From: Escherichia phage BUCT632
Direction: 5' to 3' (one strand)
Length of the DNA stretch: 64,000 nt
Sequence record: PQ488502.1
The notes beneath the pieces were generated by a model. It saw only the letters and a program-made list of their open reading frames with translations, was not told the DNA's origin and searched no databases. Below are positions 1 through 61,578 of the stretch, in pieces. Each line of letters starts with the position of its first letter. Position 1 is the stretch's first letter. Both the position numbers and the translations under genes were made by a program.

Positions 1-2432
1 GAGCTCAAGAAAAAACTAATAGACAGATAGACCCTACCAACGTTGGTGCTGTTGCTTTAAGTTTAGCTGCTTCTGAAGAAGGCTATAATAAAGCTCTAGA
101 TATGTATAAGGAATCTCTTGATAAGCGTAATAAGCTAAAATCTGAGTTCGATAAACGAATGGAACAAGCAGATTTCTATACAAAACTAGCTATACGTCAA
201 GTTGGTGAAGGTATTCCTGTTGGTATTGCAGCAGCAGGTGCTTCGGAGGCCAATAAGCAATTTGTAGCAGAAACTGCAGCTATGGGTCTACAAGTAACTA
301 GACTTGGTAAGGAAGTAGAGGATTCTACAGAGAACCTCAATGCTTGGAAATCAGCGTATCAAGCTGCTGGAGCTGCTGCTGCAAAAGCTAATCCACAGTT
401 TCAGAAACAGATTAATCTACAGAGAGATTCTACAGATCCTGGCGCTGTATACGATTTTAACTCTACTGTATTAAAAGGACTAACTGAGCAGCAGAAAGCG
501 TACAATCAGACTAAGAAAACTGCTAGTGACTTAGCGAATGATATACAGAACGTTGCTCAGAATACAGATACTGCTGCTAAAACTAGTGCTACTTTAGCAG
601 ATGCTATAAAAAACATAGAATCTCTATCTCTAGGTACTGGTAAGAGTGCTGATGAATATGTTAAAAATCTTAACCTAGGCTACAACACTCTGTCTGAAAT
701 GAAAACTGCGTCTCAGGCCTTATCTGAGTACGTTAAACTAACTGGTAATGAGACTAAGAACCAGTTAGCAGTTCAACAGAAGATAGCTGACGTATACAAC
801 CAAACTAAAGATAAAGAAAAAGCACAGGAAGCCGGTAGGCGTTTAGAACTCCAACAGTTAGAAGAGCAAGAGGCTGCTTTACGCCGTGTTCTTCAAACAA
901 ACCAGGGAAATAAAGCTGTTGAGAAAGAGATTGAAAAAATTCAGCTGGAGAAACTTAAGCTTACCAATCAGGGTATGGAAGCTCAGAAGAAAGTTAAGGA
1001 TTATACAGATAAAATTCTGGGTGTAGACCGTGAGATAGCTCTCTTAAATAACCGTACTATGACAGATACTCAGTATCGTTTAGCACAGTTAAATCTTGAA
1101 TTGACCATTGAAAAAGAGAAGTACGAATGGTATACAAAACAAGCTGATAAACAGAAAGAGGCGGAACAGTCTAGACGTGCTCAAGCCCAAATTGAACGTG
1201 AAATCTGGAAATTCCGCCAAGATCAGATTGCTTCAATGGCTGCTGGTAGAGAGGAAGAACAGCAAAGACAATTTACCGCTAAACCATTAATGGGAAATGC
1301 GGAGCGCTTACAGGAACAGCTAAAATTATATGAAGACTTAAAGCAGAAAACATTAGGTAATGCTGCGGCACAAGCGGAATATAATAAAAAGATAGCTGAA
1401 ACTAGGGCACAACTAGCAGGTTTAAGGGCACAGAGAAATGCGGAGATGCAAGCTTCTGTTGGATCTTCTTTAGGTGCTGTGTACACTCCTACAACTGGAC
1501 TATCTGGAGAAGATAAAGATTTTGCTGATATGGGAAATAGAATGGCTTCTTATGATCAGGCAATTTCTAAACTATCTGAGTTAAATTCCGAAGCAACTGC
1601 TGTAGCTCAAAGCATGGGTAATTTAACCAATGCTATGATTCAGTTCTCTATGGGGTCTTTAGACACTACTTCCACGATCGCAGCAGGTATGCAGACTGTG
1701 GCCTCTATGATTCAATATAGTACTAGTCAACAGGTTAGTGCAATTGATCAGGCTATTGCAGCAGAGCAGAAACGTGATGGTAAATCAGAAGCATCTAAAG
1801 CTAAGTTGAAGAAACTAGAAGCTGAAAAGTTGAAGATTCAACAAGACGCAGCTAAGAAGCAGATCATCATCCAAACTGCAGTAGCTGTAATGCAAGCGGC
1901 GACAGCTGTACCGTACCCGTTCTCTATTCCTTTGATGGTGGCGGCAGGTTTGGCAGGTGCCTTAGCTCTTGCTCAAGCATCTTCTGCATCTGGTATGTCA
2001 AGTATTGCAGATTCTGGAGCGGATACAACTAGTTACCTAACCTTAGGAGAACGTCAGAAGAATATAGATGTGTCCATGTCTGCTAATGCAGGTGAACTGT
2101 CTTATATTCGTGGCGATCAAGGTATAGGTAGCGCTAACTCTTTCGTTCCTCGTGCTGAGGGTGGTAATATGTACCCTGGGGTTAGCTATCAAATGGGTGA
2201 GCATGGTACAGAAGTAGTTACCCCTATGGTTCCTATGAAAGCTACACCTAATGATGAGCTAAAAACTTCATCTAACTCAACTTCAGGAAGACCTATCATC
2301 TTGAATATTAGTGCTATGGATGCTGCAAGTTTTAGAGAGTTTGCTTCTAGTAATAGTAGTGCTCTAAGAGACGCAGTAGAATTAGCTCTGAATGAGAACG
2401 GTGCTAGTCTGAAAACATTAGGAAATTCTTAA
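1..2432 (+). CDS. Tail tape measure protein (pb2-like), C-terminal part; 5' end lies outside the window
   Basis: Frame is open from base 3; long coiled-coil-like sequence, a hydrophobic membrane segment (AVAVMQAATAVPYPFSIPLMVAAGLAGALALA) and a C-terminal domain; position directly upstream of Dit and hub genes. Confidence 0.8.
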   Translation, partial: AQEKTNRQIDPTNVGAVALSLAASEEGYNKALDMYKESLDKRNKLKSEFDKRMEQADFYTKLAIRQVGEGIPVGIAAAGASEANKQFVAETAAMGLQVTRLGKEVEDSTENLNAWKSAYQAAGAAAAKANPQFQKQINLQRDSTDPGAVYDFNSTVLKGLTEQQKAYNQTKKTASDLANDIQNVAQNTDTAAKTSATLADAIKNIESLSLGTGKSADEYVKNLNLGYNTLSEMKTASQALSEYVKLTGNETKNQLAVQQKIADVYNQTKDKEKAQEAGRRLELQQLEEQEAALRRVLQTNQGNKAVEKEIEKIQLEKLKLTNQGMEAQKKVKDYTDKILGVDREIALLNNRTMTDTQYRLAQLNLELTIEKEKYEWYTKQADKQKEAEQSRRAQAQIEREIWKFRQDQIASMAAGREEEQQRQFTAKPLMGNAERLQEQLKLYEDLKQKTLGNAAAQAEYNKKIAETRAQLAGLRAQRNAEMQASVGSSLGAVYTPTTGLSGEDKDFADMGNRMASYDQAISKLSELNSEATAVAQSMGNLTNAMIQFSMGSLDTTSTIAAGMQTVASMIQYSTSQQVSAIDQAIAAEQKRDGKSEASKAKLKKLEAEKLKIQQDAAKKQIIIQTAVAVMQAATAVPYPFSIPLMVAAGLAGALALAQASSASGMSSIADSGADTTSYLTLGERQKNIDVSMSANAGELSYIRGDQGIGSANSFVPRAEGGNMYPGVSYQMGEHGTEVVTPMVPMKATPNDELKTSSNSTSGRPIILNISAMDAASFREFASSNSSALRDAVELALNENGASLKTLGNS

Positions 2433-51347: not shown

Positions 51348-51355
51348 AAATTTAC

Positions 51356-51384
51356 TTGCTTAAATACTTAAATTTCTGTATAAT
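51356..51384 (+). promoter_or_regulatory. Promoter (TTGCTT-N17-TATAAT)
   Basis: -35 at 51356-51361, -10 at 51379-51384. Confidence 0.65.
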
Positions 51385-51415
51385 ACTTCCATAAACTAAT
51401 GAGAGGAAGCGAAAT

Positions 51416-52029: not shown

Positions 52030-52037
52030 AAATTCAT

Positions 52038-52066
52038 TTGCTAAATGCTTATAAATTCTGTATAAT
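52038..52066 (+). promoter_or_regulatory. Promoter (TTGCTA-N17-TATAAT) driving an ORF-free region and the first tRNA
   Basis: -35 at 52038-52043, -10 at 52061-52066. Confidence 0.65.
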
Positions 52067-52074
52067 ATATTCAT

Positions 52075-52863
52075 AAATTAGGGAACAGCGAGCCGATTAC
52101 GCTGAGTGCAGAATCCCAACCGGAGCGCATTGAATAGAGTCGGTGGGTTAGTTGTAAAACTAGTACACAGGGGGCGGCAATCCCGGTTAGTGGCTAGAAC
52201 GTGTAAAATGAGGCGTCTGAAACCTCTCCCCTAAACTCTTCTCTAATTTATAAATAGTGGGGTGTGGAAATCACTTATGTAGTAACACTGCCGTCCTAGT
52301 ATAATTGGTATTATCAAGCCGTAACTGGTGGAAGATGTAGGTTCGAATCCTACGGTCGGTAAGAACTGGATAACTGATGCTTTTAACGTAAAAGCTTCCG
52401 AGGTTAGTTGCGCACTGCCTAAACCACGCGGTAGTTGGTTCCAGACTAACCAACCAGTCTGCTGAATAGTTTTATTACGATTTAACTATGTCCAGGCTAA
52501 AGAAGAACTTTAGAAGGTATTCTAGGATAGTGAAGTTCTTTCTCCATATCGGAGTAGTTTTTCAAGCTATCCACAAAGTGGGAAATGCTGACATGAGAGA
52601 TGTCACTAATGGTGCACAATAGCACAGGTAATTCGCGATAACTCCTGTTGAGTAGCAGCAAAAGGCGGGAAGTCATGACCCCAAGCCTAACCGAGTCCTC
52701 AATATACCGCAGGATATAACCACTAAGTCACCCTGACTTAAACTGGAAAATAATAGACGTTACCGTATTTTGTCTTGAAATACTTAATGAGTGAGACTTA
52801 TGACTCTCCCGGTATCGTCTGTATTTTTAAGAGTTTTTACGAGAGTTCTTAAAAATACTTAAA
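52075..52863 (+). ncRNA. ORF-free transcribed region with tRNA-like T-arm hairpin (candidate structured stable RNA or precursor leader)
   Basis: About 790 nt without an ORF of 60 aa or more, downstream of a strong promoter; canonical T-arm GTAGG-TTCGAAT-CCTAC at 52337-52353 without a foldable cloverleaf. Confidence 0.3.
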
Positions 52864-52938
52864 CGGGGTGTAGTCTAAGGGAGAGGCAGGAGTCTTCTAA
52901 ATTCCTTTATGCAGGTTCGAATCCTGTCACCTCGGCCA
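52864..52938 (+). tRNA. tRNA-Arg (anticodon TCT)
   Basis: Hand fold: acceptor CGGGGTG/CACCTCG, anticodon loop CTTCTAA, T-arm GCAGG-TTCGAAT-CCTGT, encoded CCA. Confidence 0.7.
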
Positions 52939-56573: not shown

Positions 56574-56651
56574 GGTTCTCAAGCTCATATGGTATGAGCA
56601 CCCGGCTCATAACCGGAAGGTACGTAGGTTCGAATCCTCGGGGAGCCACCA
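56574..56651 (+). tRNA. tRNA with CAT anticodon (Met or Ile2), weak T-stem
   Basis: Acceptor GGTTCTC/GGGAGCC, D-arm GCTC...GAGC, anticodon loop CTCATAA, TTCGAAT T-loop with only 3 T-stem pairs, CCA. Confidence 0.45.
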
Positions 56652-61499: not shown

Positions 61500-61578
61500 G
61501 GGGAATGGGTCTGCATGGAGTGGACACCTCGCTTGCACCGAGGACATCAGAACGGTTCGATTCCGTTATTCTCCACCA
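61500..61578 (+). tRNA. tRNA-Ala (anticodon TGC) with G3-U70 pair
   Basis: Acceptor GGGGAAT/ATTCTCC with G3-U70 wobble, D-stem GTCT/GGAC, anticodon arm CCTCG-CTTGCAC-CGAGG, T-arm AACGG-TTCGATT-CCGTT, CCA. Confidence 0.65.

Follow-up and report, generated by a model that had tools for sequence, protein, structure and literature searches.

A large, modular and probably highly structured non-coding RNA encoded upstream of tRNA-Arg in T5-like phages

What is encoded between a promoter and the tRNA-Arg gene in the 64,000-nt stretch of the Tequintavirus sequence PQ488502.1 analyzed here (the window), where about 790 nt (52075–52863) appear to be devoid of genes? The original prediction proposed that a strong promoter drives either a structured RNA or the remnant of a tRNA or an intron, in the position of an unusually long leader. 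Our analysis suggests, with a probability of about 0.8, that the interval encodes RNAX, a non-coding RNA (ncRNA) that is large, modular, highly structured and specific to T5-like phages (Demerecviridae). Large, intricately folded RNAs of bacteria and phages are rare, and neither Rfam nor the searchable papers contain a comparably large structured RNA of T5-like phages. The elements of the locus are listed in Table 1.

Both proposed boundaries are in place. The promoter is near-consensus (10 of 12 consensus positions matched), the same site is labeled "promoter P16-17" in the records AJ604531 and AY734508, and the promoter block is kept across all genera compared; the promoter scan, with 5 promoter-like sites against 4.5 expected by chance, is by itself not above chance. 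By recourse to the T5 PN25 promoter, we take A52073 to be the likely transcription start. At the other end, the region of ~790 nt stops exactly at tRNA-Arg. Comparison with AJ604531 (phage 5) revealed 99.6% identity over 841 nt, and the rnaX misc_RNA, the promoter and tRNA-Arg of that record all lie under the match. Taken together, the annotated RNAX records (T5, phage 5, DT57C and DT571/2; AY543070, AY734508, AJ604531, KM979355, NC_027356) are 93.6–99.6% identical to the window at the nucleotide level and share with it the locus, promoter P16-17 and the boundaries up to tRNA-Arg. The GenBank label in T5, phage 5 and DT571/2 reads "rnaX / RNAX, stable RNA with unknown functions"; the records state only the stability and the unknown functions, "stable RNA" being the depositors' GenBank note alone, and the fold is described in the present analysis. 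Neither Rfam 15 nor the searchable literature yielded a family, structure or function of RNAX, and a scan of the window region and of the longest homolog (1.3 kb, from a Klebsiella phage) against Rfam at E ≤ 10 matched the tRNA family alone, plus noise, with no known family of large RNAs.

The claim that the interval lacks ORFs of at least 60 aa is correct for the transcribed strand, where the longest ORF within 52075–52863 has 45 aa, but not for the other strand, which contains one borderline ORF of 60 aa (TTG start, 52271–52453) as well as one of 59 aa. Could the interval then encode one or more small proteins of less than 60 aa? ORFs of 42–45 aa (plus strand) and 59–60 aa (minus strand) do exist, and certain genome annotations list such ORFs as hypothetical proteins. 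However, all of them are frameshifted or stopped in close relatives, even between phages that are 97% identical: the ORF 52488–52622 is broken in T5 and HildyBeyeler, and the remaining ones in bastian and SB13. Moreover, one ORF overlaps the T arm of the tRNA-like element described below, and no Shine-Dalgarno sequence was seen ahead of the starts. With no conserved frame in the interval, a protein-coding function appears extremely improbable.

The evidence for the predicted structure of RNAX is comparative, not thermodynamic: the folding energy of the whole 789 nt does not differ significantly from that of shuffled sequences (z = -1.1 for the plus strand and -1.4 for the minus strand), while the alignments of relatives reveal compensatory changes in 31 base pairs. 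In domain A (29 sequences) 37 pairs are 93.4% paired, with 15 changed on both sides, and in the 3' domain (24 sequences) 45 pairs are 96.6% paired, with 16 changed on both sides; for each region and for both together none of 500 shuffles equaled the count and slid controls gave 1–3, with the proviso that these shuffle statistics are inflated by the kinship of the sequences and that the sequences had also served in part to derive the structures. In the consensus fold of the whole RNA, 30 of the 116 predicted pairs are compensatory; many helices of RNAX are invariant, and covariation therefore says nothing about those. G·U wobble pairs sit on the plus strand. The covariation and the matching GenBank annotation bear out the structured RNA that had been proposed to arise from the strong promoter. 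Decayed tRNA genes and non-functional spacer in a recombination-prone tRNA region, an already disfavored reading, would be in keeping with the defective anticodon arm of the tRNA-like element, with indels, module swaps and homing-endonuclease insertions, and with the dispensability of the region in T5 st0, but it is very improbable in view of the 31 or more compensated base pairs, the motifs invariant across subfamilies, the conserved mismatches in the acceptor stem, and an order of modules that is constant over genera only 70–75% identical.

On the plus strand, RNAX is predicted to be a chain of a 5' domain, domain I, central hairpins, domain II, a small hairpin, a three-way junction and a terminal hairpin. 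In TrudiGerster, both strands of helix P1 of the 5' domain carry 2 inserted nt. A possible pseudoknot between the P2 loop (52092–52098) and 52138–52144 is weakly supported, by one compensatory change against two disruptions (in bastian and STG2). The closing helix of domain I is invariant inside the T5-like set and reads ACGG/CCGU in DU_PP_V, i.e. with two compensatory changes, while hairpin S1 is represented by GGCAGU/ACUGCC in bastian and by GCUG...CAGC with a large insert in SuperGirl and DU_PP_V. An H-type pseudoknot around S1 was not counted, because an apparent compensatory change in it falls together with a module swap. Also rejected were the long-range pairings GGUGU/GCACU and GCGGUA (52428–52433)/UAUCGU (52813–52818) proposed by RNAalifold, which compete with S1 and the three-way junction and are absent from other module types. 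The inner central hairpin is UAGAA/UUCUA in the window, UAGUC/GACUA in SB13 and UAGGC/GCCUA in Kp127. Domain II contributes 14 pairs with changes on both sides; its closing helix is AUGG/CCGU in DU_PP_V and broken in one sequence (TrudiGerster). The small hairpin becomes AAGUC-UACGCAU-GACUU in DU_PP_V, and T5 has two copies of its motif, one on either side of an 87-nt insertion. For the three-way junction, independent folding of each sequence type gave the same topology despite differing sequence. The terminal hairpin, finally, is 98% paired, with U-A replaced by C-G in bux and SB13, and is kept in Klebsiella and Pectobacterium phages.

Table 1. Features of the predicted RNAX locus (positions in the window)
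Feature	Position	Strand	Evidence or remark
Early sigma-70 promoter	52038..52066	+	-35 TTGCTA, 17-nt spacer, -10 TATAAT
RNAX, predicted large structured ncRNA, ~791 nt	52073..52863	+	identity to rnaX, no conserved ORF, covariation
5' domain, closed by helix P1	52075..52249	+	sequence comparison across phages
Helix P1, AAAUUAGGGAA / UUCUCUAAUUU	52075-52085 / 52239-52249	+	G-C to A-U in Eos
Hairpin P2, loop AGCCGAUUA	52086-52090 / 52100-52104	+	CAGCG/CGCUG T5-like; CAGCA/UGCUG DU_PP_V
Hairpin P3	about 52105-52131	+	within 5' domain
Last hairpin of 5' domain	52210-52213 / 52223-52226	+	GAGG/CCUC window; GUGG/CCAC Sugarland
Domain I, closed by GUGG (52257-52260) / CCAC (52424-52427)	52257..52427	+	RNAalifold proposal
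12-bp stalk helix, leader 52270-52283 / trailer 52365-52378	52270..52378	+	encloses tRNA-like arm
tRNA-like arm	52290..52361	+	Rfam tRNA 35.5 bits; covariation
Hairpin GCUUUU-AACGU-AAAAGC	52379..52395	+	variants GCUUC/GAAGC, GGUUC/GAACC, GCUUAU/AUAAGC
Hairpin S1, AGGUUAGU / ACUGCCU	52401..52420	+	invariant UAAACCAC directly after
Central hairpins region	52434..52554	+	covarying consensus columns 190-202, 219-241, 223-237, 228-233
Central hairpin GUUGGUU/AACCAAC	52434-52440 / 52448-52454	+	
Central hairpin UAGUU/AACUA	52467-52471 / 52484-52488	+	
Central hairpin GAACUU/AAGUUC	52505-52510 / 52533-52538	+	inner UAGAA-GGUA-UUCUA at 52511-52524
Central hairpin CUCC/GGAG	52542-52545 / 52551-52554	+	
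Domain II, closed by GUGG (52578-52581) / CCAC (52720-52723)	52578..52723	+	four hairpins inside
Domain II hairpin 1	52589-52594 / 52600-52605	+	
Domain II hairpin 2, loop with UCGCGA	52624-52628 / 52644-52648	+	
Domain II hairpin 3, loop AGUCAUGA at 52671-52678	52664-52670 / 52679-52687	+	
Domain II hairpin 4	52695-52699 / 52711-52715	+	
Small invariant hairpin AGUCA-CCC-UGACU, then UAAACUGGAA	52726..52748	+	no variation among T5-like phages
Three-way junction, closing stem AGACG/CGUCU + UACC/GGUA, linker UUAAU	52755..52820	+	separate folding per type
Junction hairpin GUAUUU/AAAUAC	52765-52770 / 52778-52783	+	
Junction hairpin GAGU/ACUC	52789-52792 / 52803-52806	+	
Terminal hairpin, 17 bp, A/U-rich	52821..52858	+	5 nt upstream of tRNA-Arg
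tRNA-Arg(UCU)	52864..52938	+	ARAGORN + Rfam

The original prediction correctly located a T arm (GTAGG-TTCGAAT-CCTAC, 52337–52353), but its statement that this arm cannot be completed into a tRNA is true of the anticodon arm only, the acceptor, D and T arms being complete. RF00005 aligns with 52290–52361 end to end (model positions 1–71) at 35.5 bits, above the gathering score of 29, with these three arms present and the anticodon arm skipped. The element exhibits a 7-bp acceptor stem, a D arm with GG, the T arm GUAGG-UUCGAAU-CCUAC, and canonical T and D loops, while the "anticodon" part has a 3-bp stem and the 6-nt loop GUAACU instead of the 5-bp stem and 7-nt loop of a tRNA; Pectobacterium phages (DU_PP_V) have 5 bp and a 3-nt loop here, and Sugarland has an extra hairpin. 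The encoded 3' CCA, present in all 21 tRNAs of the window, is absent (AAGAAC comes next), and the flanks, free and single-stranded in a tRNA, pair as a 12-bp helix, the stalk. ARAGORN does not call the element in the window, and calls its homolog "tRNA-Ser(ACU)" in T5 and DT571/2 and "tRNA-SeC(UCA)" in bastian and S147.

The suggested "degenerate tRNA remnant" has to be abandoned, as selection acts on the element: there is covariation in its T, acceptor and D stems, and the non-canonical pairs of the acceptor stem, U5·U68 and position 1/72 (G1·U72 or G1·A72), are retained even in Pectobacterium phages. The 12 pairs of the stalk are 99.7% paired, 6 of them with changes on both sides, and in Pectobacterium phages this helix is almost fully rewritten with pairing retained. 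The element shows no likeness to any particular phage tRNA beyond generic positions. Since it tops a 12-bp helix made of its own flanks, it corresponds to an arm of a larger scaffold rather than to a decayed tRNA; in STG2 an unrelated stem-loop of ~45 nt stands in its place. We infer that the arm keeps the elbow and the acceptor stem of a tRNA, cannot decode, and is a structural or recognition module.

Such an arm on its stalk might bind a host factor that recognizes tRNAs (a defense nuclease, a modification or repair enzyme, Ro60/Rsr or the ribosome), the rest of RNAX being the scaffold of a tRNA-mimic decoy or of an adaptor resembling the Y RNAs. This proposal concerns function and is compatible with RNAX as a structured ncRNA. 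The preserved elbow (D-loop GG and T-loop UUCGAAU) and the 7-bp acceptor stem with its conserved non-canonical pairs are consistent with it, and counter-defense is a known role of elements in the T5 tRNA region, e.g. of tRNA-Lys against PARIS. In the YrlA bacterial Y RNAs, too, a stem is joined to a tRNA-like domain, and RNase P cleaves the YrlA of M. smegmatis (7-bp acceptor stem), to which CCA is added; RNAX shares with this family the T arm, D arm and acceptor stem placed on a stem of flanking sequence, an "anticodon" region that is shortened or departs from the standard and, by analogy, where the acceptor stem has 7 bp, possibly the ability to serve as an RNase P substrate. The strand topology is different, however: in YrlA a hairpin occupies the acceptor position, between the T and D arms, whereas the stalk of RNAX enters through the acceptor stem. 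RNAX is also 5–10 times larger than YrlA, and the YrlA model of Rfam matches neither the window region nor the longest homolog at E ≤ 10. The sequence GNCGAA adjoins the stalk in most relatives (GUCGAAAU), but the window and all Tequintavirus have GUGGAA (GUGGAAAU), without the trailing G of the YrlA motif GNCGAAN0-1G, which is missing elsewhere as well. YrlA has Ro60 (TROVE) as its partner, while none is known for RNAX and, to our knowledge, E. coli K-12, a host of these phages, has no Ro60. Finally, STG2, Sepoy and INF11 entirely lack the arm and retain the remainder of RNAX. We therefore regard the decoy or adaptor function as unlikely. A tmRNA was rejected: neither ARAGORN nor Rfam found one, and the tRNA-like element is contiguous and internal.

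Homologs of RNAX, 636 to about 1300 nt long, occur in at least 5 genera of Demerecviridae. The module order is conserved over these genera, with single modules swapped, deleted or invaded by homing endonucleases, and the succession of landmark motifs does not differ between Tequinta-, Epseptima- and Sugarlandvirus; the covariance model R1 finds the versions from Pectobacterium phages (88 bits, E = 4e-18). The 5' domain is a mere hairpin in T5 and DT571/2, and S147, bux and CitS1 have an HNH gene instead. This HNH_3 homing-endonuclease ORF, found in some relatives only, was inserted secondarily in place of the 5' domain, and Rfam yielded no match to group I or group II introns, which speaks against the "intron remnant" that had been envisaged. 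No counterpart of RNAX was detected in E. coli genomes or plasmids, a pattern of the tRNA-like arm gave 0 hits in GTDB genomes, and a pattern of the terminal hairpin gave 5 hits in metagenomes, all of them chance matches without other motifs. The SPFH protein was discarded as a locator of distant relatives, as it led mostly to unrelated phages, e.g. ~170-kb phages of Klebsiella, Cronobacter and Aeromonas.

Or perhaps RNAX is a cis-acting leader or processing scaffold solely for driving and maturing tRNA-Arg and the downstream genes, without any role as a free RNA? In Tequintavirus, Epseptimavirus and DU_PP_V it directly adjoins tRNA-Arg, and the promoter has no other obvious product. However, a 169-aa ORF lies between RNAX and tRNA-Arg in bux, S147 and CitS1, two ORFs do so in Klebsiella phages, and My1 has no tRNA-Arg at this locus, yet RNAX persists in all of them together with its own terminal hairpin; besides, a covarying structure of about 790–1300 nt far exceeds the needs of a leader. 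To call the region a leader of tRNA-Arg is thus a misdescription, and a purely cis-acting role is quite improbable.

RNAX is most likely a strongly transcribed early ncRNA that is freed by RNase P at tRNA-Arg. Transcription from the strong early promoter would proceed from near 52073 into tRNA-Arg, RNase P would then cut at the 5' end of tRNA-Arg, as in tRNA maturation in general, thereby freeing RNAX and setting its 3' end, and the terminal hairpin would shield this new end against exonucleases. Such protection would explain the annotators' label "stable RNA".

In kind, RNAX appears to resemble GOLLD and ROOL, which are encoded by phages and prophages, often near tRNA islands. Its size class is the same (about 600–800 nt and more), phages carry it beside tRNA genes, and its fold comprises numerous covarying helices, multi-stem junctions and possible pseudoknots. 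GOLLD exhibits a less conserved 5' region and a linker that sometimes carries tRNAs; similarly, the 5' part of RNAX is variable and its 3' part more conserved, and its tRNA-like unit varies in position. ROOL is abundant yet non-essential in the one strain examined, and RNAX, which is taken out by the T5 st0 deletion, is dispensable in that phage. The hosts differ, RNAX being confined to enterobacterial T5-like lytic phages and GOLLD/ROOL occurring in prophages, phages and metagenomes. The Rfam models of GOLLD and ROOL match neither the window region nor the 1.3-kb Klebsiella phage homolog at E ≤ 10, and hence there is no evidence of homology with RNAX. We know of no function of GOLLD and ROOL more than a decade after their discovery.

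GOLLD and ROOL form RNA-only homo-oligomers, cages held in part by symmetric kissing loops, whereas self-association of RNAX is hinted at only by hairpin loops with self-complementary sequence, for which a post hoc test gave a modest signal (Fisher p about 0.004), with exceptions: the L020 type retains only CGCG, and the AGUCAUGA loop is shortened in My1. It is a speculation that RNAX acts as an RNA-only scaffold, possibly self-associating through these loops; alternatively or additionally, it might, also speculatively, be a tRNA-mimicking decoy for an accessory anti-host role of the T5 tRNA region. A bolder and rather doubtful idea is that RNAX constitutes a third class of self-assembling "ornate" RNA in phages, independent of GOLLD and ROOL, a kissing-loop homo-dimer or oligomer that displays the tRNA-like arm and acts early on the host translation, tRNA or defense machinery. 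Kissing would then involve the invariant AGUCAUGA loop and a neighboring loop that is, depending on the lineage, UCGCGA, CUCGAG, GUGCGCAC or CCGCGG. If RNAX does self-assemble, the function of a giant phage RNA would become directly testable, as T5 is classical, tractable and available with natural deletion mutants (st0).

T5-like phages are model organisms and common candidates for therapy and food safety, with hundreds of sequenced genomes, and the system is experimentally easy (E. coli K-12 as the host, an existing st0 deletion). The natural module swaps, deletions and endonuclease insertions amount to ready-made mutants and thus provide a rich comparative data set. A family model would also mend the annotation of the locus, with its misnamed tRNAs and spurious hypothetical proteins: other genome annotations list tRNA-OTHER, tRNA-Sec, tRNA-Ser or tRNA-Leu here, and some place up to six spurious "hypothetical proteins" at the RNAX locus.

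The interval 52073–52863 (+ strand) coincides exactly with a misc_RNA, 'rnaX / RNAX: stable RNA with unknown functions', in five GenBank records (AJ604531 from phage 5, AY734508 and AY543070 from T5, KM979355 from DT571/2 and NC_027356 from DT57C), where it lies 3' of 'promoter P16-17' and extends to tRNA-Arg. The locus is a member of annotated RNAX; the original prediction of a structured RNA was right in its primary interpretation, however the locus had already been annotated. The interval is blank in most other GenBank records, and the remaining ones carry either the tRNA-like piece, labelled tRNA-OTHER, -Sec, -Ser or -Leu, or up to six small hypothetical proteins. A literature search found no paper discussing RNAX. 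The 2 kb around it show 97–99% identity to many Tequintavirus (T5-like) genomes. AY734508 comprises 8208 bp, i.e. 41891 - 33684 + 1, the segment absent from T5 st0 according to its own annotation; RNAX lies inside this deletion and is therefore dispensable for laboratory growth.

Features of the RNAX locus (window coordinates, + strand); landmarks are listed in their common order
Feature	Coordinates	Sequence or remark
Promoter-like site	52038–52066	TTGCTA-17-TATAAT; sequence scan
5' domain	52075–52249	closing helix AAAUUAGGGAA / UUCUCUAAUUU
Long-range helix 1	52257–52260 with 52424–52427	GUGG with CCAC; closes multi-helix domain
Stalk of tRNA-like element	52270–52283 with 52365–52378	12-bp helix
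tRNA-like element	52290–52361	Rfam tRNA model
Long-range helix 2	52578–52581 with 52720–52723	GUGG with CCAC; closes multi-helix domain (domain II)
Terminal hairpin	52821–52858	17 bp
tRNA-Arg(UCU)	52864–52938	first of 20 tRNA genes from 52864 onward (ARAGORN)
Landmarks 1–5		GUGGGGUG, AACACU, GAUAACU, AAACCAC, AGUGGGAAA
Landmark 6		AGUCAUGA hairpin loop
Landmark 7		AGUCACCYUGACU then UAAACUGGAA (UAUAACUGGAA in Klebsiella phages)
Landmark 8 (last)		terminal hairpin

The region between the promoter and tRNA-Arg had been described as free of ORFs of 60 aa or more, which holds for the + strand (longest ORF at most 45 aa) but not for the opposite strand, with one borderline ORF of 60 aa and another of 59 aa. 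The suggested check for short ORFs was carried out by mapping each of them onto an alignment of ten homologues, and all are broken in relatives: the 44-aa ORF (52488–52622) is frameshifted in T5 and HildyBeyeler, both ~97% identical overall, in Epseptimavirus the 45-aa ORF over the T arm has no start and is interrupted by stops or frameshifts, and both ORFs on the - strand are likewise disrupted. As judged from this alignment, the RNAX locus is not protein-coding. The Rfam scan, also proposed at the outset, identified only tRNA matches in the window region and in the longest homologue, even at E <= 10, and membership in GOLLD, ROOL, YrlA, tmRNA or introns was not detectable with ARAGORN and Rfam.

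The T-arm sequence is present at 52337–52353, as originally reported, but the claim that it cannot be completed into a tRNA did not survive, as the Rfam tRNA model aligns across the whole element, apart from the anticodon arm alone, at 35.5 bits (threshold 29). This 'anticodon' arm has 3–4 bp and a 6-nt loop, GUAACU; it is tipped by a 3-nt loop in Pectobacterium phages, and Sugarland-type phages carry an extra hairpin inside the anticodon loop. CCA ends all 21 of the 21 genuine tRNAs in the window and is not encoded in the element, the flanks of which pair as a 12-bp helix (99.7% paired, 6 pairs compensated), which places the tRNA-like element at the end of an arm within a larger RNA. Identity as a tRNA was rejected on the anticodon arm, the CCA and the free ends alike. 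Domain A, which includes the element and its stalk, was aligned in 29 distinct sequences (Tequinta-, Epseptima-, Sugarlandvirus and phage Eos) and scored against a hand-drawn structure. The covariation in related genomes, proposed as a check, is evident: among 37 pairs, with 93.4% of cells paired, 15 exhibit two-sided changes, a score equalled by 0 of 500 shuffles, while sliding the partners by 1–3 columns leaves 1–3 two-sided pairs. Within the element, the T, acceptor and D stems covary. Two acceptor-stem mismatches, U5.U68 and G1.A72, are kept in the distant Pectobacterium versions amid altered neighbouring pairs, which favours selection over decay and argues against the degenerate tRNA originally suggested. 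STG2, Sepoy and INF11 carry an unrelated stem-loop of ~45 nt in place of the entire cloverleaf but retain the stalk and all other parts of the RNA; the STG2 version (L049, 1340–1385) reads GCCAGAUGCUCA...UGAGC...UCUGG and is also found in the other two. The evidence for selection on the tRNA-like element as a structural arm appears to be new.

The rest of the RNA is also extensively paired. Seven helices of the 3' domain, scored in 24 sequences, comprise 45 pairs (96.6% paired), 16 of them with two-sided changes (0/500 shuffles, slid controls 1–3), and RNAalifold predicted 116 pairs over the full length, with 30 compensated, the central hairpins among them. By minimum free energy, the full-length RNA does not outperform shuffled sequences. 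The closing helix of the 5' domain shows a compensatory change of G-C to A-U in Eos and a 2-nt insertion on both strands in TrudiGerster; in T5 and DT571/2 the interior of the domain is gone and the closing helix remains as a simple hairpin. In four genomes, S147, bux, CitS1 and one more, the domain has given way to an HNH_3 homing endonuclease gene (Pfam E = 1.2e-11). Both GUGG/CCAC helices are invariant within T5-like phages, the second being disrupted in TrudiGerster, and the homologous positions in the Pectobacterium phage DU_PP_V read ACGG/CCGU and AUGG/CCGU, i.e. compensatory changes. The three-way junction ahead of the terminal hairpin differs completely in sequence between Tequintavirus, Epseptimavirus and most Klebsiella-phage versions; folded singly, most of these show the same topology, STG2, Sugarland, Eos and DU_PP_V being the exceptions. 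G.U wobble pairs on the + strand fix the strand of the RNA as +. On the + strand, RNAX forms a conserved non-coding RNA structure of several domains close to the promoter, with tRNA-Arg immediately 3'.

Among the T5-like phages examined, the landmark order is common to Tequinta-, Epseptima-, Sugarlandvirus and Eos, and the modules between landmarks are swapped, gained or lost whole, with lengths of 636 nt (DT571/2), 719 nt (T5), ~790 nt (window) and ~1300 nt (Klebsiella phage Kp127). The domain A covariance model found a single copy in the window and identified (88 bits, E = 4e-18) a ~1-kb version at the same place in the Pectobacterium phages DU_PP_V and My1, which are members of a different subfamily (Mccorquodalevirinae). 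There appears to be new evidence for RNAX as an extensively structured modular family of 0.6–1.3 kb, conserved across Demerecviridae, and for its place among the handful of giant, functionally enigmatic phage RNAs. Searches of 5,426 E. coli genomes and of PLSDB plasmids gave no RNAX-like sequence, nor did a strict pattern applied to GTDB (one genome per species); pattern matches in metagenomes were rejected as chance.

In T5 (L005, AY734508, ~795–905; window ~52727–52749) RNAX carries an insertion of ~87 nt between direct repeats of the invariant AGTCACCTTGAC(T/A)TAAACTGGAA, suggestive of a duplication or insertion at an invariant hairpin. Some Epseptimavirus carry two invading ORFs at the locus (817–1299 and 1930–2439 in bux; same in S147, CitS1 and STG2): the 160-aa HNH_3 homing endonuclease, which replaces the 5' domain, and a 169-aa protein with no Pfam match, between the terminal hairpin and tRNA-Arg.

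Any function of RNAX is speculative; its closest analogues in kind are GOLLD and ROOL. These are large phage or prophage RNAs, often close to tRNA islands, which form RNA-only cages partly stabilised by symmetric kissing loops; GOLLD sometimes has tRNAs in its linker, and ROOL is abundant but non-essential in one strain. RNAX resembles them in size, phage and tRNA context, architecture and dispensability, whereas its likeness to YrlA is limited to a tRNA-like module on a stem, the strand topology being different. Two adjacent hairpins of domain II have self-complementary loops, the first invariant AGUCAUGA (AGUCAUG in My1), the second UCGCGA or CGCGCG, CUCGAG, GUGCGCAC, or CCGCGG across four otherwise unrelated module versions; one loop 2 type retains CGCG only. 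Composition-preserving shuffles gave p = 0.24, 0.07, 0.007 and 0.12 for the four versions, or ~0.004 when combined by hand (Fisher's method) in a comparison made post hoc. These loop sequences give at most a hint that RNAX self-associates. Equally, RNAX could be a tRNA mimic or decoy within the T5 tRNA region, which is accessory and serves counter-defence.

The RNAX promoter, which we take to be of the strong T5 early type, would start transcription at A52073, the initial transcribed sequence AUAAAUU resembling that of PN25. RNase P cleavage at the 5' end of tRNA-Arg would then generate the RNAX 3' end at 52863, and the terminal hairpin, retained even where ORFs intervene before tRNA-Arg, could shield this end against 3' exonucleases, and its length also suffices for a substrate of RNase III. 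Since its acceptor stem has 7 bp and position -1 is a U, the tRNA-like arm may itself be an RNase P substrate, like M. smegmatis YrlA, for which such cleavage is reported; the stalk would then keep the pieces together.

The promoter block occurs a second time ~680 nt upstream (~51348–51398, 81–87% identity to 52030–52080, -10 ending at 51384), ahead of a 56-aa ORF and a YqeY-like gene, and the label 'P16-17' may denote this pair. In phage Lindwurm (L003, 587–1141) the annotated YqeY-like product, encoded upstream of the promoter, has 185 aa versus 147 aa, and the region exceeds its window counterpart by 111 nt. Further downstream, the Rfam tRNA model identifies a tRNA at 56574–56648 (40.3 bits, anticodon loop CUCAUAA, i.e. 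CAU) absent from the ARAGORN list, while the ARAGORN tRNA-Ala at 61500–61578 scores below the Rfam gathering score. An exact match to AGTCACCNTGACTNNAACTGGAA in an unrelated metagenomic viral contig from IMG/VR (L053, 4366–4388, and L056, 4414–4436), directly 5' of a ribosome-binding site and ATG, is accompanied by no other RNAX motif and is probably due to chance (~0.2 such matches expected). T5-like records labelled Listeria (OR847649 and OR847704, 'Listeria phage LM 4-11-1', RNAX match at 90–99% identity) or Campylobacter (MG065642, 'Campylobacter phage A148', with 91.7% amino-acid identity in the SPFH gene next to RNAX) are likely to reflect contamination or mislabelling.
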